64,000 nt of DNA from Candidatus Latescibacterota bacterium (GTDB taxonomy: Bacteria > Latescibacterota > UBA2968 > UBA8231): contig OZ241889.1 in NCBI GenBank assembly GCA_965203355.1, positions 2,272,001-2,336,000 on the forward strand. Reading direction: 5' to 3'. Both the position numbers and the translations under genes were made by a program. Shown one piece after another: positions 5,428-64,000 of the stretch; position 1 is the stretch's first letter, and each line of letters begins with the position of its first letter. The notes under the pieces were generated by a model. The model was not told where the DNA came from, made no database searches, and saw only the letters and a list, made by a program, of their open reading frames with translations.

Positions 5428-8400
5428 TTGACGGATCTATTCTTTGAACAGCCGGTCTTAAACTCGCCTTACGAGCGTCCGAGCCGTCATTGGGAACTGG
5501 ACGAGACCGGGCAGCCGACCCAGCAGATCGTTGAACACCGCCGACCCGCCGAGTTCATCACGCCGATTCCGCAGCCGAAGAAGCGCCAAGGAGAAAAGCA
5601 GCAAGGGGCGCTAGTCTTTGACGAGGCCGCGCAAAAGCTCGAAACGGCCGATCAGCAATACGACCTGACGGCGGTCATCAACGGGGTTCGCGCGCAGGTT
5701 GACCGCTGGCGGGCGCTGCCAAACCCGCGCCAGTGGCAGGTGACCCCGGAGACCGCTCGCTTGCTCCAGCACTGGCGGCACCACCGCTTTAGTGGCATTC
5801 GGCCCTTCTTCTGCCAAGTCGAAGCGGCGGAGACCGCTATTTGGCTCACCGAGGTTGCGCCCAACACGCGATCGGGCCGGGCCTTTCTCGAGCATCTAAA
5901 GGACGCCAACCACAACGCCAACCCGGAACGGCCGCTGCCGCGGTTGGCCCTCAAGCTGGCGACCGGCACGGGCAAGACCACGGTCATGGCGATGTTGATT
6001 GCTTGGCAGACCGTCAATGCGGTGCGTCGGCCGCAAAGCCGCCGCTTCACGCGCGGTTTTTTGGTGGTCACGCCCGGCATCACCATCAAGGACCGCCTGC
6101 GCGTACTGCAGCCGAATGACCCGGATAGCTACTACCAGAGCCGCGAGTTGGTGCCCAGCGGCATGCTCCCGGAGCTGCAAAAGGCCAAGATCGTCATCGT
6201 CAACTATCACGCCTTCAAGCGGCGCGACCGCCTGGCGCTTTCCAAAGGCGGCCGTTTGTTGCTCGCGGGACGGGGCCAGACGCTGGCAACCTTGGAGACC
6301 GAGGGGCAAATGCTGCAACGGGTCATGCCCGAACTCATGGGCGCGAAGAACGTCTTGATCCTCAACGACGAGGCGCACCACTGCTACCGCGAAAAGCCGG
6401 GCGAGCCGGAAGAAGGGGCGCTCAAGGGCGATGACCGCAAGGAAGCCGAAAGGAATACGGCGGCGGCGCGGCTGTGGATGTCGGGGCTGGAAACCGTTGG
6501 CCGCAAGCTCGGCATCAACCGGGTGCTGGATCTTTCAGCGACGCCCTTTTTTTTGCGCGGGTCCGGGTATGCCGAAGGCGCGTTGTTCCCTTGGACGATG
6601 TGCGATTTCTCGCTCATGGACGCGATTGAATGCGGCATCGTCAAATTGCCCCGCGTGCCGGTGGCCGACAACATTCCCGGCGGCGACATGCCCAAGTTTC
6701 GCCGGCTCTGGGACCACATCCGCCCGGCCATGCCCAAGAAGGGGCGGGGCCAAGGCCAAGACCTCGATCCGCTCAGCCTGCCGGTGGAGTTGCAGACGGC
6801 GCTGGAAGCACTGTACGGACATTATCAGCAAACGTTTGAGTTGATGGAGCAGGCGGGCATGGACGTCCCGCCGTGTTTCATCGTGGTCTGCAATAACACC
6901 TCGACTTCCAAGCTGGTGTACGACTACATCGCTGGTTTCTGGCGCGAGAACGAGGATGGCTCGAAGAAGCTCGAGAACGGTCGCTTGGAACTGTTTCGCA
7001 ACTTTGACGAACAGGGCAACCAATACCCGCGCCCCCGCACACTGTTGATCGACAGCGAGCAATTAGAGTCCGGCGACGCGCTCGACAGCAATTTCCGCAA
7101 GATGGCCGCCGACGAGATCGATCGCTTTCGGCGCGAGATCATCGAGCGCACTGGGGACCGTCGTCAGGCCGACCACATCAGCGAGCAAGCGTTGCTCCGC
7201 GAGGTGATGAACACGGTGGGCAAACCGGGGCGGCTGGGGGATTCGATTCGCTGCGTGGTGTCGGTGTCGATGCTTACGGAAGGCTGGGATGCCAATACCG
7301 TTAGCCACGTGCTGGGCGTGCGCGCCTTTGGGACGCAACTGCTGTGCGAGCAGGTCGTTGGCCGCGCCCTGCGCCGTCAGTCCTACGATCTCAACGAAAA
7401 GGGCTTGTTTGACGTGGAATACGCGGATGTCTTGGGCATCCCGTTCGATTTTACGGCCAAGCCCGTTGTCGCTCCAGTCAAGCCACCGCGCAAGACCGTT
7501 CAGGTGCGGGCCGTGCAGCCTGAACGCGATGCGCTGGAGATATGTTTCCCCCGCGTGGCCGGGTATCGAGTGGAATTGCCGTCCGAGCGGCTCAGTGCCG
7601 AGTTCAACGAGGACTCGGTGCTGGAGCTGACGCCGCATCTGGTTGGCCCGTCCAGTACGAGGAATCAGGGGATTATCGGCGAGAGCGTGGACCTCAACTT
7701 GGTTCACACCAACAATCTGCGGCGCTCGACCGTACTCTTTCACCTGACCTCGCGGTTGCTCTATACTAAGTACCGCGATCCGGGCGACGCCCCCCAGCTC
7801 TATCTCTTCGGCCAGCTCAAGCGCATCGCCAAGCAGTGGCTCGATGGCTACCTCATCTGCAAGGGCGGCACCTATCCTGCCCAGCTTATGTATCAGGCGC
7901 TGGCGGATAGGGCCTGCGAGCGCATCTCGGCGGCCATCACGCGAAAGGGAATCGGCCAGCGCCCGGTCAAAGCCGTACTCGATCCGTACAATCCCGTTGG
8001 TTCGACAGCCGAGGTGAATTTCAACACGACCCAGACCAGCCTGTGGCAGACCGATGCCCGGCGTTGTCATCTCAACCACATCGTCCTCGACAGCGACTGG
8101 GAAGCCGAATTTTGCCGTGTCGCCGAATCCCATCCGCACGTCCAAGCCTACGTCAAGAACCACAACCTCGGTTTGGAGGTGCCCTACCGTTGCGGGTCGG
8201 AAACGCGGATGTACCGGCCGGATTTTATCGCAGCTATTGACGATGGTTGTGGCCGCGACGATTGGCTGCATCTGATCGTCGAGATCAAGGGCTATCGGGG
8301 GGAAGACGCCAAGGACAAGAAAACGACCATGGACACGTATTGGGTGCCTGGGGTGAATAATTACCGGGCCTACGGGCGCTGGGCTTTTGCCGAGTTGATT

Positions 8401-8499
8401 GACGTGTTTGAGATGGAAGCTGCGTTCAATCGGTTGGTTGAGCAGTTTAGGGCCGCGGCGATAGCTCGACAAAAGGGGCGCGCTAATGCTTTGGGATAG
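5428..8499 (+). CDS. Type III restriction-like Res subunit (SF2 helicase plus PD-(D/E)xK nuclease)
   Basis: LATGTGKT Walker A, LNDEAHH, LSATP, MLTEGWD, EQVVGRALRR; C-terminal YRPDF...VEIKG nuclease; Mod gene downstream. Confidence 0.92.
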   Translation: MTDLFFEQPVLNSPYERPSRHWELDETGQPTQQIVEHRRPAEFITPIPQPKKRQGEKQQGALVFDEAAQKLETADQQYDLTAVINGVRAQVDRWRALPNPRQWQVTPETARLLQHWRHHRFSGIRPFFCQVEAAETAIWLTEVAPNTRSGRAFLEHLKDANHNANPERPLPRLALKLATGTGKTTVMAMLIAWQTVNAVRRPQSRRFTRGFLVVTPGITIKDRLRVLQPNDPDSYYQSRELVPSGMLPELQKAKIVIVNYHAFKRRDRLALSKGGRLLLAGRGQTLATLETEGQMLQRVMPELMGAKNVLILNDEAHHCYREKPGEPEEGALKGDDRKEAERNTAAARLWMSGLETVGRKLGINRVLDLSATPFFLRGSGYAEGALFPWTMCDFSLMDAIECGIVKLPRVPVADNIPGGDMPKFRRLWDHIRPAMPKKGRGQGQDLDPLSLPVELQTALEALYGHYQQTFELMEQAGMDVPPCFIVVCNNTSTSKLVYDYIAGFWRENEDGSKKLENGRLELFRNFDEQGNQYPRPRTLLIDSEQLESGDALDSNFRKMAADEIDRFRREIIERTGDRRQADHISEQALLREVMNTVGKPGRLGDSIRCVVSVSMLTEGWDANTVSHVLGVRAFGTQLLCEQVVGRALRRQSYDLNEKGLFDVEYADVLGIPFDFTAKPVVAPVKPPRKTVQVRAVQPERDALEICFPRVAGYRVELPSERLSAEFNEDSVLELTPHLVGPSSTRNQGIIGESVDLNLVHTNNLRRSTVLFHLTSRLLYTKYRDPGDAPQLYLFGQLKRIAKQWLDGYLICKGGTYPAQLMYQALADRACERISAAITRKGIGQRPVKAVLDPYNPVGSTAEVNFNTTQTSLWQTDARRCHLNHIVLDSDWEAEFCRVAESHPHVQAYVKNHNLGLEVPYRCGSETRMYRPDFIAAIDDGCGRDDWLHLIVEIKGYRGEDAKDKKTTMDTYWVPGVNNYRAYGRWAFAELIDVFEMEAAFNRLVEQFRAAAIARQKGRANALG
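8421..8440 (+). repeat. 20-bp direct repeat TGCGTTCAATCGGTTGGTTG, copy 1 (in res 3' end)
   Basis: Identical to 10244-10263. Confidence 0.9.
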
Positions 8500-10234
8500 C
8501 GCGCACTTGTTGCAGCGACTTGAACTCGGCGAAGATAGCCGCTTTGAGTTTAAGGAAGCGGTGTTCGTTGACAATCGGGTTCGCGCTCCGCGTCGGGACG
8601 CTCTCGCCGACGAGTTGGCCGCTTTGGGCAACACCGTCGGCGGCACCTTGATCTTCAGCGTGTCCGACGCGGGCGCGGTGCGGCCGATGAGCCGCGCTCA
8701 GATGGATGCGTTGGAAATGTTCGTCAGCGAGATTTGTGCGGACAGCATCCATCCCCGGTTGGCCTACGTCACGCAGCGACTGGTGTTGGACGGTTCGTTT
8801 GTGTTGATCGTCGAGGTCGAACAGAGTGCGCTGGTCCACAAGAGTCCCGGGGGGTACTTTTCCCGCCAGGGTAGCACCAAGCGCGTGCTGTCGTCGGAGG
8901 CCTTAAAGCGTCTGTTTCAGCAGCGGGGGCGTTCTGGCCTGCTCGGCCCGGATGAAGCGATTGTTGCCCGTACCGGACTCAAGACGCTCGACGCGACCTT
9001 AGTGGATCGCTTCCTGAGTTCGCGTGCCACCGAGCCGTTGAGGATTCAGCTCGAGAAGCTGGGGTTGGTGCGAGAGGATGACCGGGGCGTACTGGGTGCA
9101 ACAGTCGCCGGGGTGCTGCTTTGCACTGAACACCCGGAGGCGTACCTAAGCGGCGCGATGATCGAAGCGGTTTGCTATCGCGGCACGGTGCGCGGCCGGG
9201 CGAGTCAGCACGACGCTGCCTCTATTACCGGCCCGCTGGATCAGCAGATCCGCGCTGCGGTCAACTTCGTCAGACGCAATACGTGGGTAGCGGCGCGCAA
9301 GGATCCCGGGCGAGTAGAGATTCCGCAATTTAGTCCGCGCGCCCTGTTTGAGGCCATCGTCAACGCGGTGGTACACCGCGACTACTCAATGGAGAACGCC
9401 AAGATCCGGCTCTTTGTTTTTGATGATCGCCTTGAGTTGTACTCACCGGGGGCCTTGCCTAACACGCTGACCATTGAGGCCATGCGGAATCGACAAGCCA
9501 CCCGCAACGAAACGCTCGTGTCGGTCCTCCGTCGGCTCGCGGTAGGGGATATGGCCGGTACTGGCGACCGGCAGTACTTCTTGGAAGAACGCGGCGAAGG
9601 GGTTTCGATTATCTACGAGCAGACCCAAGGGCTGACCGGACGCGACCCAGCATACGAACTGTTCGACGGTGCGGAACTGCGGCTGACCATTCCTGCTGCC
9701 CCCCCGCCGGTTCATGGCATTGAGGGGGAGGTGTTGGTGTCGGCCGCTGGTCGGCCGCTCGCCGGGGCAAAGGTCGTTGCGCTGTACCCCAACAAGACTT
9801 GGATGGAGGAGGAAACCGATGCGTTTGGGCGGGTCCATTTCGGGTTTCACTCGGAACTCCCCATCACCGTTTTCTGCGCGGCACCGGGCCATGCCGCCCA
9901 CGTGGAGCGGGATTGGCTCCCGCCGAAACCCCTTGACGTGCCGCTCGCACGGTTGCCGCTGGGCGGCTCAACGGTATTCACGGACGGGAGCGGACACTTG
10001 CCCGATTTGACCGGGCGGCTGAATCCGATCCTCGACGATCGCGATCGCATGTACCTGTACGCGACAAATGTCGCCATTGATGAAGGCAAGCAGCAGCCGG
10101 TTCACTTCAAATTGAACCAGCCCTTGCGGCTTACGGATGTCAACGGGTTTGAGTGGATCGTGCGGTTCGTTGAGATGATCGGAACGTCGGTGCTGTTGGA
10201 ATACGAAGCCGCGTCCGACAAAGCTCCGCGATGA
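8486..10234 (+). CDS. AlbA_2 (Schlafen-like) plus HATPase_c_4/RecG-C ATP-binding protein with extra C-terminal beta-sandwich domain
   Basis: GEDSRFEFKE, LAALGNTVGGTLIFSVSD, EAIVNAVVHRDY, LELYSPGALP, ERGEGV motifs; about 175-aa extension starting GEVLVSAAGRPLAGAKV. Confidence 0.85.
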   Translation: MLWDSAHLLQRLELGEDSRFEFKEAVFVDNRVRAPRRDALADELAALGNTVGGTLIFSVSDAGAVRPMSRAQMDALEMFVSEICADSIHPRLAYVTQRLVLDGSFVLIVEVEQSALVHKSPGGYFSRQGSTKRVLSSEALKRLFQQRGRSGLLGPDEAIVARTGLKTLDATLVDRFLSSRATEPLRIQLEKLGLVREDDRGVLGATVAGVLLCTEHPEAYLSGAMIEAVCYRGTVRGRASQHDAASITGPLDQQIRAAVNFVRRNTWVAARKDPGRVEIPQFSPRALFEAIVNAVVHRDYSMENAKIRLFVFDDRLELYSPGALPNTLTIEAMRNRQATRNETLVSVLRRLAVGDMAGTGDRQYFLEERGEGVSIIYEQTQGLTGRDPAYELFDGAELRLTIPAAPPPVHGIEGEVLVSAAGRPLAGAKVVALYPNKTWMEEETDAFGRVHFGFHSELPITVFCAAPGHAAHVERDWLPPKPLDVPLARLPLGGSTVFTDGSGHLPDLTGRLNPILDDRDRMYLYATNVAIDEGKQQPVHFKLNQPLRLTDVNGFEWIVRFVEMIGTSVLLEYEAASDKAPR

Positions 10235-10243
10235 GGATGCGAA

Positions 10244-10286
10244 TGCGTTCAATCGGTTGGTTGGGGGATTTCGGGCAATGGAGTAG
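10244..10286 (+). repeat. 20-bp direct repeat copy 2 plus alternative res 3' end (AFNRLVGGFRAME*)
   Basis: Exact 20-mer match to 8421-8440. Continues in the res frame as GCG TTC AAT CGG TTG GTT GGG GGA TTT CGG GCA ATG GAG TAG. Confidence 0.85.
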
Positions 10287-10332
10287 GGGAGTTGGAAAGC
10301 TATAATTGATTTAACTGACGAGGGAGGAAGCC

Positions 10333-10536
10333 ATGAAACTGAAAGTTGTGATTCACAAAGCGGAAGAAGGTGGATATTGGGCAGAAGTACCCGCTATCCC
10401 CGGCTGCGCCACACAAGGGGAATCCTTCGAAGATCTGCTGACCAACCTCTACGAGGCTGTCGAAGGTTGTCTGTCCGTCGAGGTGCGCGACATTCCTATA
10501 TCGGAGCAGGACAAGGTGATCGAAATCGCCGTATGA
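10333..10536 (+). CDS. hicB: HicB-family antitoxin (short)
   Basis: [21 protein letters not shown]...[10 protein letters not shown] signature; GGAGG RBS. Confidence 0.9.
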
Positions 10537-10688
10537 AGGTCGTTAGCGGCAAGCAGTTTTGTAAGCTGATCGAGTCGCGGGGGTGGCAGTTGAAGCGCAT
10601 CAACGGAAGCCACTATTGCCGTGAAGGGCGGGTGTTGAGCATTGATCGGGTTCGTGCCGAAGTGCTGATTAACCAAGAGCAACTTTAG
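10533..10688 (+). pseudogene. hicA: Truncated HicA toxin fused to unrelated sequence
   Basis: [27 protein letters not shown] is a HicA N-terminus, ATGA-coupled to hicB. The expected VPxH C-terminal half is missing. Confidence 0.75.
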
Positions 10689-10730
10689 CGAAAAGCCCTG
10701 TTGAACAGGACCAACGAGGACTCCGTATAA

Positions 10731-13697
10731 ATGGCGAAACGAAAATCGACTAAAACCGTTGAAACGTTGCGGCATCAAGACGCATCGCGGAAGAACATTC
10801 CCACGGCTGAGTATCAGGCGGTGATGGCCGACGACGACCGGAATCCGATTCAGGTTGCGTATGAGCGGCGCAATCGGGATCTCGATCCGCAGCTTGTTTG
10901 GCGCGGCAAGGACGAGCAGGACGGGTCGGATTTGGTGGTGCAAGCGCCGCCGCTGTTCATTCAGGAGAAGGTGCATCCGAAAGTGTTGATCGATGATTTG
11001 CGGCAGCGGAGCGGCGCGTCGAGCGCACAGACGGATTTGTTCGCGGATTTTAATGGGCTGCCGAGCGCGGACGCTCAGACCGAGTTTTACCAGCACGACG
11101 CGAACTGGTCGAATCGGATGATTCTCGGCGACAGCTTGCAGGTGATGGCGTCACTGGCCGAGCGCGAGGGTCTGCGCGGTAAGGTGCAGTGCATCTACAT
11201 TGACCCGCCGTATGGGATCAAGTTCAACTCGAACTTTCAGTGGTCCACCACCAGCCGCGACGTGCGCGATGGCAAGGCCGAGCACATTACCCGCGAGCCA
11301 GAGCAGGTGAAGGCGTTTCGGGATACGTGGCGCGATGGGATTCATTCGTATTTGACGTATTTGCGGGATCGGCTGACGGTGGCGCGGGATTTGTTGGCGG
11401 AGAGTGGGTCGGTTTTTGTGCAAATTGGCGACGAGAATGTGCATCGGGTGCGGGCGGTGATGGATGAGGTTTTTGGGGAGGAGAATTTTGTCTCGATGAT
11501 TTACTTCGCCACGACTAGTGGATTTTCTACATCGGAAATCAGCCGCGTTGGTGATTACTTGATTTGGTACGCAAAAAGCAAAAGTGAAACCAAATACCGA
11601 GAATTGTATGTTCCAAAAGGTAGTATCGGGAGCGGTGTTGAATCTTACAGGTTTTTGGCACTCTCTGACGGAACTCAGCGATCTATGACAAGAGAAGAGC
11701 GTGAAGGCCATACTGCTTTGCCTGAAGGCAGCAAGATTTTTCGACGCAGCGACTTACAGAGTAAAGGGACTGCATCTCAGGATACTCCTGTTCAGTATGA
11801 AGGTCGCATTTTCCGTCCTTTATCAAATAGTCACTGGAAAGCAAACTGGCCAGACGGAATGGAAAAACTCAAACTTTCTGGTCGCGTTACTATTGTCGGA
11901 AATCGACTTTGCTACATTCGTTACTCCAACGATTATCCAGTGCAGCAGCTTACCAACTCTTGGATGGATACAGGATTTGGTTATGCTGCAACGGATAAAC
12001 AATATGTTGTCCAAACGCACGAGAAAGTCATCCAACGCTGCATCCTAATGACCACCGACCCCGGCGACCTCGTCCTCGACCCCACCTGCGGCTCCGGCAC
12101 GACAGCCTATGTCGCCGAGCAGTGGGGCCGCCGCTGGATCACCATTGACACTTCCCGCGTGGCCCTCGCGCTGGCCCGCGCCCGCATCATGGGCGCCCGC
12201 TACCCTTGGTACATCCTCGCCGACAGCCGCGAAGGGCAGCGCAAAGAAGCCGCACTCGCCCGCCAAGTCCCCTCGGAAGCACCCACATACCACGACATTC
12301 GCCAAGGCTTCGTGTACGAGCGCGTCCCCCACATCACGCTCAAATCCATCGCCAACAACGCCGAAATCGACGTAATCTATGAAAAATTCCAAGCAACGCT
12401 GGAGCCGCTGCGGACGGAATTGAACGCCGCGCTCGGCACGTCCTACGAAGAATGGGAAATCCCCCGCGAGGCCAGCGACGCTTGGCCCGCAGCGGTCGGC
12501 AAAATGCACGCGGACTGGTGGGAACAGCGCATCGCCCGGCAAAAGGAAATCGACGCCTCCATCGCCGCCCAAGCCGACTGCGAATACCTCTACGACAAAC
12601 CCTACGAAGACAACAAAAAAGTCCGCGTGGCCGGCCCGTTTACGGTGGAAAGCCTGTCGCCGCACCGCTTCTTGGGCGTTGATGAAAACGACGAACTCAT
12701 CGACCATGTCGCCGAAAGCAAGTTGGGGTACGACGAAAAGCAGGACTTCGCTGCCATGATCCTCGACCACCTCAAAACCGCCGGCGTCCAACAGGCGCAC
12801 AAAGAAGACCGCATCGCCTTCGCCGGGATCAGACCTTGGCCCGGAGCGCGCGTCTGCGCCGAGGGAACCTACGTTGAAGGCAACGCCGACTCGGGTGCTG
12901 AAAAACGCGCTGGCATCTTCATCGGCCCGGAGTTCGGCACGGTCTCGCGCCCAGACCTCGTAGAAGCGGTGCGCGAGGCTGCCGACGCCGACTTTGATGT
13001 GCTGGTCGCCTGCGCCTTCAACTTTGACGCCCACGCCTCGGAGTTCAATCGGCTGGGCCGCGTTCCAGTTCTCAAGGCCCGCATGAACGCGGATCTCCAC
13101 ATGGCCGACGACCTCAAAAACACCGGCCAAGGCAACCTTTTTGTCATCTTCGGCGAACCGGATATTACAGTGGTCAGTGGTCCGTGGCTAGTGACCAGTG
13201 GGGGAGAAAAATGGGCAAACTATGAACAGGTTAAAGAGCTATCAGGACTTGGAAGTTTGGCAGAAATCAATCGAGCGGGCAAAGATGGTCTATCCACTCT
13301 CGCGCCGAAACTCGCTGCGATCCAGAAGCTGACGCCCGCGGATTTCCCCCTAACACTGACCACGGACGACTGGTCACAGGTCACTGTCCACGGCGTAGAC
13401 GTGTTCCATCCCAACACCGGTGAAATCCGCAGCAGCAGCACCGATGGCATTGCCTGCTGGTTTGTCGATACCGACTACAACGAAGAAAGTTTCTTCGTCC
13501 GCCACGCATACTTTCTCGGAGCCAGCGATCCGTACAAAGCACTGCGGACGACGCTCAAAGCCGAGATCAATCAAGGCGCTTGGGAAACCCTCCACAGCGA
13601 CACCTCCCGTCCTTTTGCCCCGCCCACGTCCGGCCGCATCGCCGTGAAGGTGATCAATCACTTGGGGGACGAGGTGATGAAGGTGTTTCGGGTGTGA
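10731..13697 (+). CDS. Type III-like Mod, N6-adenine DNA methyltransferase (beta class)
   Basis: IYIDPPYG catalytic motif precedes VLDPTCGSGTT SAM motif; AT-rich variable TRD about 11480-12030; C-terminus GRIAVKVINHLGDEVMKVF. Confidence 0.93.
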   Translation: MAKRKSTKTVETLRHQDASRKNIPTAEYQAVMADDDRNPIQVAYERRNRDLDPQLVWRGKDEQDGSDLVVQAPPLFIQEKVHPKVLIDDLRQRSGASSAQTDLFADFNGLPSADAQTEFYQHDANWSNRMILGDSLQVMASLAEREGLRGKVQCIYIDPPYGIKFNSNFQWSTTSRDVRDGKAEHITREPEQVKAFRDTWRDGIHSYLTYLRDRLTVARDLLAESGSVFVQIGDENVHRVRAVMDEVFGEENFVSMIYFATTSGFSTSEISRVGDYLIWYAKSKSETKYRELYVPKGSIGSGVESYRFLALSDGTQRSMTREEREGHTALPEGSKIFRRSDLQSKGTASQDTPVQYEGRIFRPLSNSHWKANWPDGMEKLKLSGRVTIVGNRLCYIRYSNDYPVQQLTNSWMDTGFGYAATDKQYVVQTHEKVIQRCILMTTDPGDLVLDPTCGSGTTAYVAEQWGRRWITIDTSRVALALARARIMGARYPWYILADSREGQRKEAALARQVPSEAPTYHDIRQGFVYERVPHITLKSIANNAEIDVIYEKFQATLEPLRTELNAALGTSYEEWEIPREASDAWPAAVGKMHADWWEQRIARQKEIDASIAAQADCEYLYDKPYEDNKKVRVAGPFTVESLSPHRFLGVDENDELIDHVAESKLGYDEKQDFAAMILDHLKTAGVQQAHKEDRIAFAGIRPWPGARVCAEGTYVEGNADSGAEKRAGIFIGPEFGTVSRPDLVEAVREAADADFDVLVACAFNFDAHASEFNRLGRVPVLKARMNADLHMADDLKNTGQGNLFVIFGEPDITVVSGPWLVTSGGEKWANYEQVKELSGLGSLAEINRAGKDGLSTLAPKLAAIQKLTPADFPLTLTTDDWSQVTVHGVDVFHPNTGEIRSSSTDGIACWFVDTDYNEESFFVRHAYFLGASDPYKALRTTLKAEINQGAWETLHSDTSRPFAPPTSGRIAVKVINHLGDEVMKVFRV
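13168..13393. mobile_element. IVS-like hairpin element: complementary heptamer-repeat arms around a four-helix-bundle gene remnant, in-frame inside mod
   Basis: Left arm CAGTGGT CAGTGGT CCGTGGC TAGTGAC CAGTGGG (13168-13202); right arm AACACTG ACCACGG ACGACTG GTCACAG GTCACTG TCCACGG (13352-13393), approximately its reverse complement. Confidence 0.7.
13222..13332 (+). pseudogene. Internally deleted four-helix-bundle protein (23S rRNA IVP/bAvd-like) mini-ORF, 36 aa, nested in +1 frame of mod
   Basis: MNRLKSYQDLEVWQKSIERAKMVYPLS-RRNSLRSRS*. SYxDLxVWQKS is the family N-terminal signature; GGAG RBS-like sequence upstream. Confidence 0.75.
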
Positions 13698-13733
13698 GGG
13701 CCTTATCACTCACTGATTACCGGGAATTCGAGC

Positions 13734-15446
13734 GTGAGTTTCAACACGGCTAATAGCACATTTCGCCAGTTGATGGCCAATGGGACGAGCTATCGCGTAC
13801 CATTGTTCCAACGCGACTACTCTTGGGGGGCTGACGAGTGGGATGACCTGTGGCAGGATCTTGTTGCGCTGTTCGGCGAGGATCCGGAACCGGCTCACTA
13901 CATGGGCTATCTCGTGCTGCAATCAGACGATAACAGATCGTTCGACATCATCGATGGACAGCAGCGCATGACCACGCTGAGTTTGTTGATGCTGGCGGCG
14001 GTGGCGCATCTGATGGACTTGGCCGTGCCGAATGATCCGAATGACCCGCAACATCGGCGCGCTGAGCAGTTGCGGAGCAATTACATCGGCTATTTGGATC
14101 CAGTCAGCCTAGTGCCGCGCTCCAAGCTGACGCTCAATCGGCACAATGATCGATTGTACCAGCATTACTTGGTTCCCTTGGAGCATTTGCCGCAAAAAGG
14201 ATTGAACGCATCGGAACGTCTTTTGGGCCGGGCGTTTGTTTGGTTTAAGGAGTGCATTGAGCAACGCTGCGGTGATGATGGGGAGTCGGTGGCGCGCTTT
14301 GTCGATGGCGTGGTGGATAAGCTCTTTTTCACCATCATTACCGTGACCGACGAATTGAATGCGTTCAAGGTGTTTGAGACGCTCAATGCGCGCGGTGTGC
14401 GTTTGTCTGCTACTGATTTGCTGAAAAATTACTTGTTCTCGGTTGTCTCGCGTGGTAATGCGCACGAATCCGAGATCAACGCCTTGGAAGAGCGTTGGGA
14501 AAATATCGTCGGGCTGTTGGGCAGCGAGAGCTTCCCCGAGTTTTTGCGCGTCTTCTGGAACAGCCGCAACAAACTGGTGCGCAAGGCGGATTTGTTCAAA
14601 ACCATGCGCAGTGCCATCAGCGATAGAGCGGGTGTGTTTCGGTTGGTCCGCCATATGGACCGACACGCACGGATATATGTGGCCCTGCGCGACCCGGAAG
14701 ACGATTCTTGGACCGCAGCCGAGCGCGAAAGCCTGGCCCAGTTGCGGATTTTCAACGTGCGTCAGCCATTGGCGTTATTGCTGGCGGCATTTGAACAATT
14801 TGCGGAACGCGACCGCGCTGACTTTGAACGTTTTTTGCAGGCTATCGCGGTAGTATCGTTTCGCTACAACGTGATTTGTGGTCGCCAAAGCAACGAGCTG
14901 GAAGTCGTGTATAACCAGATCGCCCGCGCGTTATCGGCCGGTGAAATTGACAGCGCACAAGAAGCCGTTGCAAGGCTGCGGCCGGTCTATCCCGGAGACG
15001 CGGAATTTAGGGCGGCGTTTGCAGATAAGGCACTGCAAACAACGAGTGCCCGCAACAAGAAAGTCGTGTGCTTTATACTATTCCGGCTCGAAGCAAAGCT
15101 ATCGGGACAGCGCTTTGAAGAAGCGAGCGCGAAATACAACATTGAGCACGTGTTGCCGGAGAATCCGCACGATGCTTGGCACGAGTTTGACGACCAGCAG
15201 CGCGAGGCATCTACCTACCTGCTAGGTAACATGACCCTTTTGACGACTGCGGACAATCGCGCGTTGGGCAATGCGAGATACGACGAAAAGCAATCGGTTT
15301 ATCAGCAGAGCGACTTTGCTATCACCCGTGCGCTGGCAGAACATTACGACACTTGGACTATGGAGAAGATTCGCAGCCGTCAAGCTTGGATGGCAAGACA
15401 GGCTACCGACATTTGGCGGATTGGTTTCCACTCGCCAACGCTTTGA
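13734..15446 (+). CDS. DUF262-DUF1524 (GmrSD-like) modification-dependent restriction nuclease
   Basis: VPLFQRDYSW, IIDGQQRMTT, FETLNARG, IEHVLP...LGNMTLL...N...N (HNH-like). Confidence 0.9.
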   Translation: MSFNTANSTFRQLMANGTSYRVPLFQRDYSWGADEWDDLWQDLVALFGEDPEPAHYMGYLVLQSDDNRSFDIIDGQQRMTTLSLLMLAAVAHLMDLAVPNDPNDPQHRRAEQLRSNYIGYLDPVSLVPRSKLTLNRHNDRLYQHYLVPLEHLPQKGLNASERLLGRAFVWFKECIEQRCGDDGESVARFVDGVVDKLFFTIITVTDELNAFKVFETLNARGVRLSATDLLKNYLFSVVSRGNAHESEINALEERWENIVGLLGSESFPEFLRVFWNSRNKLVRKADLFKTMRSAISDRAGVFRLVRHMDRHARIYVALRDPEDDSWTAAERESLAQLRIFNVRQPLALLLAAFEQFAERDRADFERFLQAIAVVSFRYNVICGRQSNELEVVYNQIARALSAGEIDSAQEAVARLRPVYPGDAEFRAAFADKALQTTSARNKKVVCFILFRLEAKLSGQRFEEASAKYNIEHVLPENPHDAWHEFDDQQREASTYLLGNMTLLTTADNRALGNARYDEKQSVYQQSDFAITRALAEHYDTWTMEKIRSRQAWMARQATDIWRIGFHSPTL

Positions 15447-15562: not shown

Positions 15563-17482
15563 CTACTTCTTGTCGTCGTCCACGACCTTGAAGTCCGCAT
15601 CTACTGCGCCCGCATCCCCGCCCCCTGGCGGCTGATCGGCGGCCCCTTCTGGTGCTGGCTCGCCTTGGGCCTGTTGGGCTTGGGCGTCCTTGTACATTTG
15701 CTCGGCCAGCTTGTGCGACGCCTGTTGCAGCGCGGTCGTGGCCTGCGCGATGGCCGCGTCGTCCGTGCCTTCGAGTGCTTCCTTGAGCGCGGCGATGGCG
15801 TCCTCAACGCCTTTCTTGTCGGCGTCGGTCAGCTTATCGCCGTGTTCGGCGAGCGATTTTTCCGTCGAGTAGATTAGCTGGTCGGCCTCGTTGCGGCGAT
15901 CGATGACCTCGCGTCGCTTTTTGTCTTCGTCGGCGTGGGTCTCGGCGTCCTTCTGCATGGAGTCGATTTCCTCTTGGCTCAAGCCCGAAGACGACTCAAT
16001 GCGGATGGATTGCTCCTTGTTGGTGCCCTTGTCCTTGGCCGCGACATTGAGGATGCCGTTGGCGTCGATGTCGAAAGTGACCTCGATCTGGGGCATGCCG
16101 CGCGGGGCCGAGGGGATGTCGTTGAGGTGGAAGCGGCCGAGCGTGCGGTTGTCGTTGGCAAACTCGCGCTCGCCTTGCAGCACGTGGACTTCCACCGAGG
16201 GCTGGTTGTCCGCGGCCGTGGAAAAGATCTGGCTCTTTTTGGTGGGGATGGTGGTGTTGCGGTCGATGAGCCGGGTCATCACCCCGCCCATAGTTTCGAT
16301 CCCCAGCGAGAGCGGCGTGACGTCGAGCAGCAAGATATCGTCGACGTCGCCAGCGAGCACGCCGGCTTGGATGGCCGCGCCCAAGGCTACCACCTCGTCC
16401 GGGTTGACGCCGCGATGCGGCTCCCGGCCGAAAAGCGCTTGGACCACGGCTTGGATTTTTGGGATGCGCGTCGAGCCACCGACCAGAATCACTTGGTCGA
16501 TTTCGCTGGGCTGTAGATCGGCATCGGCGAGGGCCTGCTGACACGGAGTCTTGGTGCGCTCTATCAGGTCGTCTACCAAGCGCTCGAACTGAGAGCGGGA
16601 CAGCGTGGCTTGCAAATGCTTAGGCCCGGTCTGATCGGCGGTGATAAACGGCAGGTTAATATCGGTCGAAGTGGAGGACGACAGCTCAATTTTGGCCTTT
16701 TCGGCGGCTTCCTTGAGCCGTTGCAAGGCCATTGGGTCTTGGCGCAGGTCAATGCCCTCTTGCTGTTTGAAATCCTCGGCGAGCCAGTCGATAATCTTCT
16801 GGTCAAAGTCGTCGCCGCCAAGGTGGGTGTCGCCGTTGGTGGATTTGACCTCGAAGACGCCTTCGCCCAGTTCGAGGATGGAAATGTCGAAGGTGCCGCC
16901 GCCGAGGTCGTACACGGCGATCTGCTCGTGGGTGCCGCCCTTGTCCAGGCCGTAGGCCAGCGCGGCCGCGGTCGGCTCGTTGACGATGCGCAAAACCTCC
17001 AAGCCGGCGATGGTGCCCGCGTCCTTGGTGGCTTGGCGCTGGGAGTCGTTGAAATAGGCCGGCACGGTGACGACCGCTTGTTTTACTTCTTCGCCCAGAT
17101 AGTCTTCGGCTGTCTGCTTCATCTTTTGCAAGATCATGGCCGAGATTTCCGGCGGCGTGTATTCCTTGCCGTCGATTTTGGCCACAGCCATGTCGCGGCT
17201 ACCGGCGGCCACTTCGTAGGGGACTTCGCTTATTTCGGTGGCGACCTCGTCGTAGCGGCGGCCCATGAAGCGCTTGATCGAATAGACTGTGTTTTGCGGG
17301 TTGGTGACGGCTTGGCGTTTGGCGGTCTGGCCGACAAGGCGCTCGCTGTCTTTGGTGAAGGCGACCATTGAGGGCGTGGTGCGGCCTCCTTCGGAATTGG
17401 CGATGACCTCTGCGTCTTGACCTTCGATGACGGCCACGCACGAGTTGGTGGTACCTAAGTCGATACCGATGACTTTAGCCAT
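15563..17482 (-). CDS. dnaK: Chaperone DnaK (Hsp70)
   Basis: [44 protein letters not shown]-terminus. Confidence 0.99.
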
Positions 17483-17656: not shown

Positions 17657-17690
17657 AAACTAAAGGAGACCGGAAACTAAAGGAGACCGG
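17657..17690. repeat. Perfect 17-bp tandem duplication AAACTAAAGGAGACCGG x2
   Basis: Read directly; coincides with the end of a gene remnant. Confidence 0.9.
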
Positions 17691-42415: not shown

Positions 42416-43897
42416 ATGTTAGACCCTCAGTACCTGCTCGGCGACGAAGAGATGCAGCAGTTCATAGCCGAGGGGTATCTCACGCTCAAATCCTCGCTGC
42501 CGGCCTCCCTCCACCAAGACATCTACCAACGCACCGAAGAGGTCTTTGCCAAGGAGGGCAATCCCGGCAACAACATTCTGCCCCGCCTCCCGGCATTGCA
42601 GCAGGTCTTTGACGATCCGGTCGTGCGCGGTGCTCTCACTTCGGTGGTGGGGCCGGATTATATCATGCACGCCCACCGCCACTGCCACCTGAATCGAGCG
42701 GATAGCGAGGGCGGTGGCTGGCACAAGGACAGCTATTGGGGCTATAACAAGGTGCGCTATCACCGCAATCGCTGGGTGATGATTTTCTACTACCCGCAAG
42801 ACGTCACCTTGGAAAACGGCCCCACCGCGGTCATGCCCGGTACGCACTACTACAACGGCCGCGCCGACAACGAGCAAGACGAGTGCCACCTGCCCGTTCT
42901 CGGCGCGGCGGGCACCTGCACCTTGGTGCATTTTGACCTGTGGCACCGGGCCATGCCCAACCGCTCGGCGACCAACCGCTATATGATGAAATTCCAGTTT
43001 ACCCGCCTCCGCGAGCCGAGCCGGCCCAGTTGGAACATCCAAGCCCCGGGCTGGCCAGCCAACGGGTCCGCGCCCTCTACCAAGCATCGCGTCGTGTGGT
43101 CGCGCATATGGGATTGGCACGCGGGCGGCCAAAGTCGCGCCGAGGTCAGCGGGCAAATTGAGCAACTGATCGGATCCCTCAACGGAACATTGGAACAACG
43201 CTTGGCAGCGACCGATGCCCTCAGTGCGTTTGGGGAAAAGGCCGTTCCGGCGCTAGAGGCGTTACTCGGTGCGCTGGGCGACGAAGCCGAGCCGGTGCGT
43301 CTCAATGCGGCGTATGCACTGGGTGCGGTGGGGAAGGCTGCCGTAGGCCCGTTGATTGCAGCCCTCGGCGATGAGCGCGAGCCGGTGCGTCTCAATGCGG
43401 CGTATGCGCTGGGTGCGGTGGGGGAAGAAGCGGTGGACGCCTTGGTTGCGGCCCTGGGCGATGAGCGGGCCCACGTGCGGGGTTTTGCGGCGTATGCGCT
43501 GGGCGACATGGGGGCGCGGGCAGGTGCTGTGGCTGCGGCCGCCTTGGGCGCGTTGCTCGACGACCCGGCCGCCTGGGTGCGGCGCAACGTGGCCGAGGCC
43601 CTTGGGACTATTGCACTGAATCCGGCCGCCTCGGTGCCGGCGTTGGCTGTGCTGCTGGCGGACGCGGACGAGCAGGTGCGCTTTAACGCCGCGTACGCGT
43701 TGGCCCACTTTGGTCCGGCGGCCGCCGCGGCCATAGATGCGTTGGCCGCGGCCCTCAGCGACGAGAATCGCTACGTCCAAGGGCACTGCACGGCCGCCTT
43801 GCAACAGATTGGTACGCCCGAAGCCCAAGGCGTATTGCTGCACCACTTGACCACGGCGCGCTGGTGTCCCATAACGACCAAGGAAACTACGTTCTGA
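42416..43897 (+). CDS. PhyH-family Fe(II)/2OG dioxygenase fused to HEAT (PBS-lyase) repeats
   Basis: WHKD, GPTAVMPGTH, LWHR facial-triad motifs; repeated VRLNAAYALG units; AGGAG RBS. Confidence 0.88.
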   Translation: MLDPQYLLGDEEMQQFIAEGYLTLKSSLPASLHQDIYQRTEEVFAKEGNPGNNILPRLPALQQVFDDPVVRGALTSVVGPDYIMHAHRHCHLNRADSEGGGWHKDSYWGYNKVRYHRNRWVMIFYYPQDVTLENGPTAVMPGTHYYNGRADNEQDECHLPVLGAAGTCTLVHFDLWHRAMPNRSATNRYMMKFQFTRLREPSRPSWNIQAPGWPANGSAPSTKHRVVWSRIWDWHAGGQSRAEVSGQIEQLIGSLNGTLEQRLAATDALSAFGEKAVPALEALLGALGDEAEPVRLNAAYALGAVGKAAVGPLIAALGDEREPVRLNAAYALGAVGEEAVDALVAALGDERAHVRGFAAYALGDMGARAGAVAAAALGALLDDPAAWVRRNVAEALGTIALNPAASVPALAVLLADADEQVRFNAAYALAHFGPAAAAAIDALAAALSDENRYVQGHCTAALQQIGTPEAQGVLLHHLTTARWCPITTKETTF

Positions 43898-60953: not shown

Positions 60954-61664
60954 ATGGATCTGAGCATCGTCATACCCGCGTACAACGAAGAGAAGCGAAT
61001 TCTCATCGCTCTGGAACAGACGCTCGCGTTGCTACAGCAGCGGCCGTGGTCCTGTGAATTGCTGGTCGTGGATGACGGCAGCACGGACCGCACGGTCGCC
61101 TGCATTGCCGAGTACGCCCGCCCGCATCCGCAAATCCGCTGTGTGCAAAACGACCGCAACCGAGGCAAGGGCTATTCCGTGCAGCACGGCGTGGCCGAGG
61201 CCCGGGGCCGGTACATCGGCTTTATGGACGGGGACTACAAGACCGACATCGCCGCGCTCGATCAGGTGATGCCCTTATTGGCAGCCGGGTGGGACGGCGT
61301 GATCGGCGACCGGACGCTGTGCGCGACCGAATTCGTCGTCGTGCGTCGGCGCTACCGGCAGTGGGGAAGCGAGGCGTTTGGCTGGCTCTTGCGCACGCTG
61401 ATGGGCTTGGGCGAGTTCGACGACACTCAGTGCGGATTTAAGTTTTTTCAGGCCGCGGTAGTGCGCGACCTCTGCGCACGGCAGCAAATCGCCGGGTTTA
61501 TGTTCGACGTGGAACTGCTACTACTGGCGCACCAATCGGGCTACCGCATTGCAAAGATCCCCGTGAAGTGGCGCTTTGACCCAGATAGCCGCTTTAATCC
61601 GGTGATCGGGACGCTGGCCAATCTCAAGGATTTGGCGCGGATCCACTGGGTGCATCGCCGCTGA
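60954..61664 (+). CDS. GT2 glycosyltransferase (dolichyl-phosphate glucosyltransferase-like)
   Basis: SIVIPAYNE, VDDGSTD, NRGKG, DGD, DTQCGFK, FDVELL. Confidence 0.9.
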   Translation: MDLSIVIPAYNEEKRILIALEQTLALLQQRPWSCELLVVDDGSTDRTVACIAEYARPHPQIRCVQNDRNRGKGYSVQHGVAEARGRYIGFMDGDYKTDIAALDQVMPLLAAGWDGVIGDRTLCATEFVVVRRRYRQWGSEAFGWLLRTLMGLGEFDDTQCGFKFFQAAVVRDLCARQQIAGFMFDVELLLLAHQSGYRIAKIPVKWRFDPDSRFNPVIGTLANLKDLARIHWVHRR

Positions 61665-61667
61665 GGG

Positions 61668-61771
61668 ATTAGTGGTCAGTGGTCAGTGGTCAGTGGTCAG
61701 TGGTCAGTAACATCCTCTCGTAGGGTGTGGTGCGGAGACTGGCCACCGGCCACCGGCCACTGACCACTAAT
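61668..61771. repeat. Heptamer tandem-repeat hairpin: (TCAGTGG)n, 29-nt loop, (CCACYGR)n
   Basis: TTAGTGG+(TCAGTGG)x4+TCAGT at 61669-61708; ACTGG CCACCGG CCACCGG CCACTGA CCACTAA at 61738-61770; fills the gap between convergent genes. Confidence 0.9.
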
Positions 61772-64000
61772 TTAGCTGTCGTCGATCTCGCGGATCAAAG
61801 CGGCTAAGCGCCCTAGGCATACGGTGAGAAAAATCTCTTGGGCAACGGGCGACTCTTGCCGCACCGGGCTGTTGATGAAGCGGCCAATGGCGATGAGGAT
61901 TACGTACACCGAGAGCACATCGTATGCTTGGTCCCTAGTGGCAGAGAGTCCGTCGCGCACGGTGCGCACGACCTGCCGCATGGCCTCCACCAGTGCCTCG
62001 CCCTCTTCCTCTTCATAAGCGACGACCACCTCTTGGCACCGGGTCTTTAACTGCGTGCGAAACTCGGCGTTGACGCAGCGCGCTCGTCCCAAGGAGTCGG
62101 TTGCTCGGCGCAGCAGGCGGGTGATAGCGGCGACGCGGTCGGTATCCTCGCGCGAGAGCAAGCGGTAGAACTGGTCGCCAGCGCCTAATGCACGGCAGAC
62201 CCCGTTGAGTAGCTGCAAGCGCACGGCTAGGGAGGGGAAGTCGGGCAGATGGCCTAGCGCAGGTCTGACGATGCGGCGATCTTGGCACTCGCCGAGGACA
62301 TCGACCAGCGTCGGGAAGGTCAAGGGGTCAAAATCGCTGCCAAAGTGCCAGAAGAGCAACTCGTGGACTTCGTCCCCACGAATGCTGGCTAGGCCGCGGA
62401 TAGCGCTGATGCGCACCCGAGGATCGGCGTCGCTTAGCGCCTCGACTAGCGGATCGATGCTCGTAGAGGATCCAAGGCGGCCTAGGGCCTCGGCGGCTTC
62501 GCTGCGGATGTCCGAAGCCCCGTCGAGTAACTCGCGCACCAAGGGTTCGGTCGCGTTTTCCGACCGGCTTTCGCCCAAGGCGCGGGCGGCCGCACGGCGC
62601 ACCCGGGGGCTGGCGTCGGCTAGGGCTTGGACCAATTGCTCGATGGCGAGGGGGTTGCCCGAACGGCCTAGGGCCTCGGCGGCGCGGGCGCGGGTTTTCT
62701 CGGCCGTGGCTAGGCTGAAAATGGTGGTGTTGTAGGCGTAGCTGAGGACGTTGCCGCGCAGCATCCGCGAGAGCAGGCTACGCGATGTCGCACTCCGGGC
62801 GTCCTTGACGGTGCGGAGGATGAACAAGGGCACTAGCCGGATCGAGGCGCTGAGAGCAAAGATGACCTGCAAATCGCCCATGGGCACGCCAAACACGGTA
62901 AAGCGCAAGCCCTCTAATTGGGCGACGAGCAGGCCGCCCAACAAGGGGCCGAGCGCACCCATTAGATTGACCGTCACCGACCAAGTGGCCAAGTACATCG
63001 TGCGTTTTTCGCCTTGGGGCAACAGGCCGTAGAGCAGCGGGTTGATGCCTACGCCGATCCCGGAGAATAGAATTCCGCTGAGGACCAAGGCCACCGGTAC
63101 TAAGCGGTAATCCCCTGGCTGATTAAAGGCCCAGATAAAAGGCAGGAACACGGCCGGTGTCATCAGGATTTGCAGGACGGGCCTGGCCCCGAAGCGGTCG
63201 ATAAGCCCGGCCCAAGCCCGATAGCCGACGATGCTGGTCAGCATGAACAGGGCGTTGAAAATCGAGATCTCGGTGTAGGAGATCTGGAGGCGGTCGAGCA
63301 TGAAAACGCTGTAGAGCGGCCCGGCCAGCCCAATGCCAAAGGTCCATAGGCCAAAAAAGAGCACGGCGCGGCGGAAGTTGGCGTCGTAGAAGGGCTGCAC
63401 AAGGTCGCGCAAGCGCGTGCTTTGTTCGTCGCTGGCGGTCGTCTGTTGGGGAAAAGGGGCGCGGAGTAGGTTTAGATAGCCCAAGAATCCAAAGAGCGAC
63501 CCGACGGCAAAGACCCAGACAAAGCCGCCGCTGTCGGGGAAAAAGTCGAGGAATTGGCCAATCGCGAAACCAGCAATCATGGCCACTATGGTGCTGACTA
63601 TGGTCTGGCGGCTGGCAAAGCGCGCCCGGATATTTTCCGGCACCGCGTTGGCGATCCAAGTGCTGTAAAAGGGCGAGATCGCATAGCCGCTGAACAAACT
63701 GAGGCTGACCATCGCCACTAGGGCCGCGAGTCGGTATGGTTCCGGGACGAGGAGGGGGATGATCAGCGGCAGCCCGCGGAAGACGATTTCCACGTACCCA
63801 CCGAAGACGACAAAGCGCTTCTTGTCGCGGACGTGTGCGCTCAGTAGGGGCGCGAGCAGTTGGGTCAGGGCTAAGAAATACGCGGCGGAAGTAAAGAGGG
63901 CGATAAAGGCCCCGTCGGCCCCTAAGTACAGCGCAAAGCCCGTAAAGGCCGCCGTCCCCAACCCACAAGCTTGCCCCCAAGCGCCCCACAAGCCGCTGGC
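61772..64000 (-). CDS. MFS transporter fused to C-terminal HEAT repeats; 5' end outside window
   Basis: About 12 TM segments with GLIDRFGAR MFS motif, then RAAEALG/VRRAAARALG HEAT units; frame open to the window edge. Confidence 0.88.
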   Translation of the reverse strand, partial: ASGLWGAWGQACGLGTAAFTGFALYLGADGAFIALFTSAAYFLALTQLLAPLLSAHVRDKKRFVVFGGYVEIVFRGLPLIIPLLVPEPYRLAALVAMVSLSLFSGYAISPFYSTWIANAVPENIRARFASRQTIVSTIVAMIAGFAIGQFLDFFPDSGGFVWVFAVGSLFGFLGYLNLLRAPFPQQTTASDEQSTRLRDLVQPFYDANFRRAVLFFGLWTFGIGLAGPLYSVFMLDRLQISYTEISIFNALFMLTSIVGYRAWAGLIDRFGARPVLQILMTPAVFLPFIWAFNQPGDYRLVPVALVLSGILFSGIGVGINPLLYGLLPQGEKRTMYLATWSVTVNLMGALGPLLGGLLVAQLEGLRFTVFGVPMGDLQVIFALSASIRLVPLFILRTVKDARSATSRSLLSRMLRGNVLSYAYNTTIFSLATAEKTRARAAEALGRSGNPLAIEQLVQALADASPRVRRAAARALGESRSENATEPLVRELLDGASDIRSEAAEALGRLGSSTSIDPLVEALSDADPRVRISAIRGLASIRGDEVHELLFWHFGSDFDPLTFPTLVDVLGECQDRRIVRPALGHLPDFPSLAVRLQLLNGVCRALGAGDQFYRLLSREDTDRVAAITRLLRRATDSLGRARCVNAEFRTQLKTRCQEVVVAYEEEEGEALVEAMRQVVRTVRDGLSATRDQAYDVLSVYVILIAIGRFINSPVRQESPVAQEIFLTVCLGRLAALIREIDDS

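Follow-up and report, generated by a model that had tools for sequence, protein, structure and literature searches.

The IVP/S23p proteins form a very large family that is known mainly from rRNA intervening sequences (IVSs) and as relatives of the retroelement protein Avd. Palindromic elements residing in Rickettsia genomes were reportedly described by Ogata et al. in 2000. Here we describe a remnant of an IVP gene, flanked by arms of heptameric repeats, within the coding sequence of a type III Mod-like adenine DNA methyltransferase (mod, positions 10731 to 13697) of a Candidatus Latescibacterota bacterium; "the window" refers to the whole 64,000-nucleotide (nt) stretch that was analysed (contig OZ241889.1), and "IVP" to the PF05635/TIGR02436 four-helix-bundle gene (23S rRNA IVP). 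The segment 13167 to 13379 is very probably a decayed, hairpin-bounded IVP cassette, seated in frame in a surface beta-hairpin of the Mod C-terminal domain. The intact cassette consists of two heptamer-repeat arms, a ribosome-binding site, and a four-helix-bundle gene of about 122 amino acids (aa). In relatives that carry it, purifying selection acts on this gene in the +1 frame and, in the arms, on the Mod codons, and the Mod frame is kept open along the whole cassette. In the window copy, 86 codons are missing from mid-cassette, a loss that destroyed the IVP gene and left Mod intact.

IVSs of 23S rRNA with an S23p/IVP open reading frame (ORF) occur in Coxiella, Leptospira, and Xanthomonas; the Coxiella IVS has inverted-repeat borders, an RNase III cut in mid-stem, heptameric repeats upstream of the S23p ORF, and an ORF in decay (PMC4990558). 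The cassette resembles these IVSs in its long stem of terminal repeats, in the Shine-Dalgarno-like site and PF05635-family ORF of its loop, in its heptameric repeats, in a decay-prone ORF, and in a patchy distribution suggestive of horizontal spread (PMC4990558). Terminal inverted repeats form a stem around the ORF here as in an IVS, whereas the location differs, being the Mod ORF rather than helix 25 or 45 of 23S rRNA. The host of the cassette is a protein gene whose frame remains open throughout, the arms double as codons, and any excision by RNase III would harm the host message.

Rickettsia palindromic elements sit in frame in protein genes at fold-compatible sites and are translated with their hosts (PMC10969869). 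The cassette shares with them, and with intragenic miniature inverted-repeat transposable elements, a palindromic build and an in-frame position that leaves the host frame uninterrupted; the Rickettsia elements measure about 150 bp and hold no gene in another frame, whereas the cassette measures 471 nt and carries a conserved 122-aa gene in the +1 frame (PMC10969869). Unlike those elements, it replaces host hairpin residues, its hosts are overwhelmingly DNA methyltransferases, and no target-site duplication was found at the insert edges; the combination of such a duplication with many near-identical copies per genome, which marks both kinds of palindromic element, was not seen.

The embedded IVPs belong to the same four-helix-bundle superfamily as bAvd (PF22296, NF033474), the accessory protein of diversity-generating retroelements. 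Their matches to it are weak, at 19.5–33.2 bits against PF22296 (cut-off 40) and 23.8–27.6 bits against NF033474 (cut-off 80), which places them outside the Avd family; unlike the Avd of those retroelements, the cassette does not imply a reverse transcriptase, for which no search was made. PADLOC assigned the embedded IVP protein to no family. Nested out-of-frame genes are known in bacteria, comS inside srfA being one, and the IVP gene is likewise a small gene in another frame of a large one. Unlike comS, it came with a mobile hairpin cassette and recurs at several sites in several host families. Our literature search, from which subscription journals and supplements were excluded, found no description of IVP genes nested in protein-coding genes; an earlier mention may exist. 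Among IVS-like elements, the family seems to be a variant not described before, specialised in methyltransferase genes.

The insert in Mod and its homologs

Homolog and DNA alignments delimit the insert as 71 Mod-frame codons between FGEPDI and VTVHGVDVF (13167 to 13379; this and the following features are on the forward strand). Its left arm (13168 to 13202) is made of five CAGTGGT-like heptamers (CAGTGGT CAGTGGT CCGTGGC TAGTGAC CAGTGGG) and reads TVVSGPWLVTSG in the Mod frame. A Shine-Dalgarno-like GGGGGAG follows at 13200 to 13206 (GGAG at 13203 to 13206), and then the IVP remnant in the +1 frame (13222 to 13332), which runs from an ATG at 13222 to a TGA at 13330 to 13332 and encodes 36 aa (codons 1–26 and the last 10 or so), or 44 aa if counted from a GTG at 13198. 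An anti-Shine-Dalgarno stretch, TTTCCCCC (13343 to 13350), pairs with 13200 to 13206 in the fold and precedes the right arm (13352 to 13393), whose six ACCACTG-like heptamers (AACACTG ACCACGG ACGACTG GTCACAG GTCACTG TCCACGG) read TLTTDDWSQVTV in Mod. No stop interrupts the Mod frame (10731 to 13697) anywhere across the insert. A preliminary description of the window had listed the same five and six heptamers, GGAG, 36-aa ORF, and open Mod frame, and had counted 71 residues between EPDI and VTVHGVDVF; all are as it described. The sole Rfam match in 13050 to 13500, a group II intron fragment on the opposite strand, was sub-threshold (E 0.55) and was taken as chance.

Species-representative genomes were scanned with the 105 residues downstream of the element, so that the scan was blind to the insert; it yielded 575 relatives, of which the best 80 were kept. 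The anchors FGEPD[IV] and V.V.GVDVF were both found in 78 of these 80 loci, and the two others, cut by contig ends, have the short form too. Eleven residues separate the anchors in 59 of the 78 loci, 14–17 in 13, and 148–157 in six, against 71 in the window; a typical empty site reads FGEPDI-DILDAEDSQIQ-VKVNGVDVF. The description had put homologs at about 10 residues here and had proposed an insertion into a C-terminal loop of Mod; its figure was right for the empty site, and the site proved to be short in 72 of the 78 homologs. All six large inserts hold a full-length PF05635 ORF in the +1 frame (E 5e-37 to 7e-41, 126–139 bits, profile positions 1–105 or 1–106 of 106), and the two that were scanned against NCBIfam gave a TIGR02436 match and an NF008911 score above the cut-off. 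The Mod frame of these six genome loci is free of stops, while the +2 frame contains many. At this position some relatives thus have an empty site and others a full-length IVP gene, both of which the description had envisaged.

Taken alone, the window ORF is a fragment rather than a member protein of the family. Its 44-aa form scores E 0.056 and 14.1 bits against PF05635 (cut-off 33.8 bits; profile positions 1–21), and the remnant ORF scores E 0.0078 and 16.7 bits against NF008911 (cut-off 137; positions 1–25). That the mini-ORF falls below every family threshold would suit a native, variable Mod loop in which the IVP resemblance and the repeats arose by chance, a reading to which we attach practically no probability: relatives have full-length PF05635 genes at this very position, the heptamer is more frequent than expected by chance, and free IVP genes are flanked by the same heptamer family. 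The full-length copies at the site and the alignment of the window to them refute it. The profile comparison proposed with the assignment to the IVP family thus succeeds for the full-length relatives and fails for the 36-aa ORF on its own. Descent from the family is shown by position, since site, frame, start codon, and the C-terminal RSLRSR-stop are as in the full-length ORFs, and it is this positional homology that identifies the remnant.

The window DNA aligns to 471-nt inserts over their first 135 nt or so and their last 78 nt or so, with a gap of 258 nt between. It is the full-length form minus a single internal deletion, whose approximate junction lies at 13298 to 13306 by alignment to the 471-nt copies and by peptide comparison with P0003, a protein of the same narrow lineage with flanks 89–91% identical to the window and a full-length filled site. 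Because the missing 258 nt are 86 codons, both frames survive, as had been suggested when the gene was first seen to lack its middle; of the IVP gene, only residues 1–26 and the RSLRSR-stop end are retained. We read the window element as a fossil, with a dead cassette gene and retained arms. A contig 95.6% identical to the window has the same short insert without gaps, and the deletion is therefore real and inherited; empty-site mod genes from other organisms occur in the same sequencing runs as this contig. Among the differences listed over the remnant-ORF span, it departs from the window by three synonymous and three non-synonymous codon changes in the Mod frame and by one and four, respectively, in the IVP-remnant frame, numbers too few to weigh.

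Shortening of the insert appears to have happened repeatedly. In a protein search with the insert in the query, all of the top 120 hits carry an insert, a bias expected from the query; most inserts are 157 aa long, and others are 168, 153, 125 (at least 14 proteins), 124, 95, 81, 78, 74, and 70 aa. The lengths of 70, 71, 74, 78, 81, 95, 124/125, and 153 aa beside 157 represent independent in-frame deletions. P0002, whose flanks are 92–95% identical to the window, has a shortened insert with other deletion endpoints. Outside Mod, an intergenic locus (L089, G002:C3:527301-530411) holds a shrunken IVP gene with a 50-aa open frame that covers profile positions 2–38, flanked by arms of TGACGAC-type heptamers. 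This gene decayed while its arms were kept, and internal decay is therefore not peculiar to the Mod copy.

Frames, selection, and the protein across the cassette

A metagenome scan with an embedded IVP protein as the query gave 80 loci. Both Mod anchors and an open frame were present in 48, both anchors and a 1-nt indel in three, and one anchor in four, while five copies lay within other long ORFs and 20 were free between genes. The Mod frame is thus kept in 48 of the 51 two-anchor loci, and in the two of the three broken copies that were aligned the indel falls in a homopolymer run. Free copies are also flanked by heptamer arms, several of the CAGTGGT type. The neighbours of 18 free copies showed no link to restriction genes and were housekeeping genes such as iPGM, Rrf2, MoxR/DUF58, ArgC-like, PheS, RecA, and QueC. 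One IVP copy (L154, 659 to 1015) groups with copies from a second Mod family and has a Mod-type arm and flank on its right, although it lies outside any Mod frame; possibly this fragment was relocated or rearranged.

In other type III mod genes, simple repeats are known to drive switching. The window has a tandem heptamer tract of 2.9 copies (13168 to 13187), and because 7 is not a multiple of 3, gain or loss of a heptamer by slippage would switch Mod on or off. We regard such phase variation as very improbable here, since the tract holds only two perfect units, no copies were seen to differ in length by 7 nt, the change in the three broken copies is of 1 nt (in a homopolymer run in the two aligned), and no indel occurs in the tract among contigs of four runs.

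Whatever the host, its frame equals the IVP frame minus one. This frame contains no stop in 53 of 54 distinct embedded copies, against 1–11 stops (median 3) in 18 distinct free copies, from which we conclude that selection keeps it open in the hosts. For the remaining alternate frame the median is 7 stops, in embedded and free copies alike; the host frame in use is the one that needs the fewest changes. For selection and stem analyses we aligned, free of gaps, the 32 distinct metagenomic inserts of exactly 471 nt, excluding nine distinct filled inserts of other lengths. In 29 of them a 122-aa IVP ORF runs intact from a conserved ATG; of the other three, one has ATA for ATG and two near-identical copies share a premature stop. 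The Mod frame has no stop in any of the 32, and the +2 frame has a median of 8.

These counts bear on whether the insert might be removed from the message or skipped by the ribosome, which would yield a Mod protein resembling the empty-site form. Ribosomal bypassing has a precedent in T4 gene 60, and the stem would bring together the two edges of the insert. Nevertheless, removal or bypass would not require the 71–157 stop-free codons that 53 of the 54 embedded copies keep, every shortened form is in frame, and the arms evolve as Mod-frame coding sequence. In programmed bypassing the host frame is interrupted in the skipped segment, as it is in none of the 32 aligned copies. Moreover, 11 host hairpin residues have been replaced in the filled form and would not come back if the insert were skipped. 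We consider this explanation extremely improbable and favour a translated insert. Of the alternatives raised in the preliminary description, a segment translated with Mod is thus favoured over an RNA that is removed or bypassed.

The ratio of non-synonymous to synonymous change (dN/dS) distinguishes the parts of the cassette. Within the IVP region it is 0.17 in the IVP frame versus 1.78 in the Mod frame, while the Mod-frame ratio is 0.26 in the left arm and 0.19 in the right, where variability is highest at Mod third positions. Over the first part of the IVP gene the Mod-frame value is 0.67, versus 3.4 in the middle, and the IVP N-terminus has an own-frame ratio of 0.20. The arms are therefore real Mod codons; what lies between them codes for IVP, and Mod merely reads through it.

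AlphaFold predictions of the window form and of a full-length copy were both made from a 101-sequence alignment. In the model of the last 349 residues of the window Mod, the 71-residue insert has a predicted local distance difference test (pLDDT) score of 89–97; the arm peptides lengthen the flanking strands (pLDDT >90 for the left arm), and three short helices pack between them. The full-length copy is modelled with insert ends at pLDDT 84–94 and a middle, residues 225–296, at 32–46. By these models, the window deletion would have taken out essentially the predicted-disordered middle of about 70 residues. The earlier idea that the arms encode flanking beta-strands of Mod finds support in their Mod-frame purifying selection and in predicted strands that extend the Mod hairpin. 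Judged from its sequence, the window Mod most likely carries a 71-residue extra module.

A stronger version of this proposal would be exaptation, in which the insert ends (about 47 N-terminal and 25–30 C-terminal Mod-frame residues) form a working Mod module, such as a small helical domain that contacts DNA from an extended hairpin, and deletion trims the insert to this module. The ends have pLDDT 84–97 in both models around a disordered middle, at least eight different shortened lengths all retain both ends, and the Mod-frame dN/dS of 0.19–0.26 in the arms and 0.67 in the first IVP part is low against 3.4 in the middle. One stretch, LSGLGSLAEINR, resembles what we take to be a helix-hairpin-helix motif. 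Against exaptation, the Mod-frame peptides match no Pfam family, the insert is absent from 72 of the 78 anchored homologs, the overlapping IVP N-terminus imposes conservation on the first part, and any tolerated in-frame deletion would also keep the ends if the arms form hairpin strands. Since there is no Pfam match and the conservation is partly forced, we hold exaptation only as a rival, and an unlikely one.

The stem and its possible role in the message

The window arms form inverted repeats of 19–24 nt with 78–84% complementarity that link 13168 to 13200 with 13354 to 13393. They are paired in the fold of 13150 to 13410 (−93.5 kcal/mol versus −80.96 ± 4.9 for shuffles; z −2.56), and one of 200 shuffles folds as well. 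In the window, the double heptamer CAGTGGTCAGTGGT with up to two mismatches occurs 10 times versus 0.22 expected, a number that none of 100 shuffles reaches, and all occurrences but one (30497) fall within the Mod insert or a second hairpin at 61668 to 61772. That hairpin, on the forward strand and of the same heptamer family, has no gene (−72.7 kcal/mol, z −7.9). It is built from five perfect AGTGGTC units and an imperfect complement around a 30-nt loop without an ORF, and lies between convergent genes (60954 to 61664, plus strand; 61772 to 63991, minus strand). It may be a cassette minus its whole gene, or a terminator made of the same repeat.

Pairing of the arms, which had been proposed from the window alone, is conserved in the family. 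RNAalifold was run on the 32 distinct 471-nt inserts, and 26 pairs were scored; of their 832 cells, 95.7% are standard pairs, versus 35–62% with partners slid by 1–3 columns. Changes on both sides of a pair number 24 cells versus 13.1 ± 2.9 in shuffles, and none of 500 shuffles reaches 24. At pair 21:495, 14 copies have AU and 10 have GC, and at pair 27:489, 15 have CG and nine have UA; both pairs connect synonymous third positions of Mod codons. G-U pairs are common, which fits an RNA stem of the sense transcript rather than a DNA cruciform. The Shine-Dalgarno-like GGGAG pairs with CUUCC just before the right arm (columns 55–59 of alignment A2 with columns 453–457, in 96.9% of cells).

These features point to a mechanism in which Mod would be translated straight through the insert, giving a protein with the 71-residue extra module. 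In intact copies the arms would form a sense-transcript RNA stem that also sequesters the IVP ribosome-binding site, and the IVP protein would therefore be made mainly when Mod-reading ribosomes melt the stem. For the cassette we thus infer a function at the RNA level.

Such a function might also be exerted through processing, with RNase III cutting the mod mRNA at the arms as it cuts 23S rRNA IVSs, and a stem that persists in the window for regulation; cleavage would free the cassette RNA and reduce Mod and with it the Mod:Res ratio. In favour, the conserved pairing includes G-U pairs workable only in sense-strand RNA, the window stem survives the loss of the gene, and the Coxiella IVS offers a parallel in its inverted repeats, mid-stem RNase III cut, heptameric repeats, and decaying ORF (PMC4990558). 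On the other hand, the Mod frame and the 105 codons downstream are strongly conserved, although the mod message would be destroyed if it were cut and not re-ligated; the embedded stems are interrupted by bulges, and coding constraint in the Mod frame explains the arm sequence equally well. Processing of this kind is possible and, in our view, doubtful.

Hosts and spread of the cassette

Of the five non-Mod host ORFs, three encode Eco57I/MmeI-like enzymes of about 1500 aa and two encode DUF1156 proteins. In a second Mod family (GQPDV...VTVHGFDYY) the homologous hairpin contains the cassette, in some cases with heptamers as different as GAGTTTT. Two loci (L159 and L160, 1715 to 4234) join a Mod of this second family, a DUF559/MTES_1575 endonuclease-like domain (residues 287–393), and an IVP cassette in one open frame. 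A profile of the shadow peptide that the host frame reads across the cassette matched 657 clusters (50% identity) at E ≤1e-3 and 294 at ≤1e-10 in a set of 1.84 billion representatives. Our Pfam census of hosts took the 56 longest of 150 listed proteins and left out the 94 shorter ones. It counted nine N6_N4_Mtase proteins (one with an EcoP15I C-terminal domain), 23 of the Eco57I/MmeI/N6_Mtase type, two DUF1156 proteins, two histidine kinases, one STAND NTPase, and 19 without a Pfam match, so that 34 of the 37 Pfam-bearing long hosts are DNA methyltransferases or fused restriction-modification enzymes. The profile was made from methyltransferase hosts and the census is therefore biased toward them; even so, the enrichment is striking. 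The shadow peptide also occurs within two hybrid histidine kinases and a STAND NTPase/PBP protein (P0186, P0210, and P0241), known from protein sequence alone, so the hosts are not methyltransferases only.

The filled state is scattered over the Mod phylogeny. On a tree of the Mod flanks without the insert columns (98 rows, 29 filled) it requires at least 15 changes, five of them forced by well-supported branches. The approximately unbiased test, applied to 54 rows (28 filled and 26 empty; 43 empty rows and one duplicate left out), rejects a single filled clade (log-likelihood difference 226, p 0.001). The window Mod falls in a supported clade (97–98) with empty-site genes of Latescibacterota genomes; its DNA is 86–90% identical to that of L001 right up to both insert edges, and 79–87% identical to that of the filled genes in the comparison. 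In the filled form the 11 host residues are replaced and not split, and on this ground recombination in the very conserved flanks is the presumed means by which the filled hairpin moved between alleles. Transfer between Mod alleles resembles an exchange of the entire hairpin region more than it does repeated fresh insertion. The preliminary description's small mobile element that enters protein genes thus stands in that it recurs in many methyltransferase genes; fresh entry each time fits the data less well. In three of five genomes with a filled Mod the cassette is the only PF05635 match, and therefore travels with the gene. The IVP protein tree (86 rows by 121 columns) is poorly resolved on a single origin of the Mod-embedded IVPs, and its starred branches force one change.

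The restriction locus and what the cassette may mean

The 988-aa Mod matches the PF01555 N6/N4 DNA methylase domain (E 8e-32) and the PADLOC type III model MTase_III PDLC03632 (1384 bits). With a Res gene at the same locus, it has the features of a type III Mod. The Res subunit is encoded on the same strand at 5428 to 8499 (PF04851 ResIII, E 4.4e-09; PF19778 RE_endonuc, E 2.7e-04 and 21.2 bits, below the 23.4-bit cut-off). Between res and mod, also on the forward strand, lie a gene with AlbA_2/HATPase_c_4 domain matches (8486 to 10234) and a HicB/HicA-like pair (10333 to 10688; the HicA match is weak and below its cut-off), and downstream of mod, again on that strand, follows a GmrSD-type gene (13734 to 15446; PADLOC HEC-06/Orf5). 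In this order across 5428 to 15446, res and mod are separated and followed by unrelated genes of defence and toxin-antitoxin type, and the insert therefore resides in the mod gene of a type III restriction locus with extra defence-type cargo. The final 105 residues of Mod (13380 to 13694) are 80–94% identical across 80 species-level genomes (L001 to L080) of more than 12 phyla, among them Latescibacterota, Acidobacteriota, Pseudomonadota, Planctomycetota, Chloroflexota, Cyanobacteriota, Bacillota, and Spirochaetota, which implies one restriction system that is very frequently transferred horizontally.

A Foldseek search with the model of the Mod C-terminal region gave only weak restriction-endonuclease-like matches, none at E ≤1e-3; those of residues 700–790 or so (about 12800 to 13100) were to AspBHI, MspJI, and BamHI (best E 5e-3), which hints at a nuclease-like fold in the model. 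A sequence profile of this region had no match in the PDB. Elsewhere in the window, an exact 17-nt tandem duplication, AAACTAAAGGAGACCGG, stands in two copies at 17657 to 17690, just upstream of a dnaK-like gene (15563 to 17482, minus strand). A tandem repeat with a 90-nt period (43288 to 43503, 2–2.3 copies, 79–85% identity) lies within coding sequence and looks like a repeated protein module.

Several points weigh against the reading of the insert as a decayed, translated cassette. Translation through the insert, the stem in vivo, and the coupling of IVP translation to that of Mod are deduced from sequence. The window stem beats its shuffles only modestly (z −2.56), its bulges may make it a poor RNase III substrate, and the covariation controls leave relatedness in, so that the covariation is support and not proof. 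Ratios of dN/dS in overlapping frames are indicative only. The high pLDDT of the insert may be due in part to the conservation that overlap with the IVP gene imposes, and the Mod-frame insert peptides match nothing in Pfam at E up to 10. Recombinational spread would follow from tree incongruence and the replaced host hairpin, with no conversion tract resolved. We nevertheless retain the decayed IVP cassette as the favoured explanation. Its imprecise loss would presumably be selected against because it would break the methyltransferase that protects the cell from its own restriction enzyme.

As a tentative proposal, which with all its parts taken jointly falls somewhat short of an even chance, the cassettes could form a distinct class of gene-carrying hairpin elements that reside in the coding sequence of DNA methyltransferases. 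Their hosts would be type III Mod, Eco57I/MmeI-like, and DUF1156 enzymes, with the host frame equal to the IVP frame minus one, and residence would be paid for by a harmless or useful host-frame peptide. The four-helix-bundle protein would be made only during host translation, through melting of the stem that hides its ribosome site, and the element would be shielded in that its deletion would break a restriction-system methyltransferase, at a cost to the cell. The IVP protein may in turn act on the restriction system or on incoming nucleic acid.

The presence of the same kind of cassette within protein-coding genes places three layers of information, namely a host frame, a cassette gene, and an RNA stem, on one stretch of DNA, and offers a natural example of long dual coding in bacteria. 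For annotation it calls for caution, as a cassette gene can be hidden in a longer ORF and a host protein can contain a non-homologous segment. For the IVP family, it provides a concrete and testable link between these genes and restriction systems.

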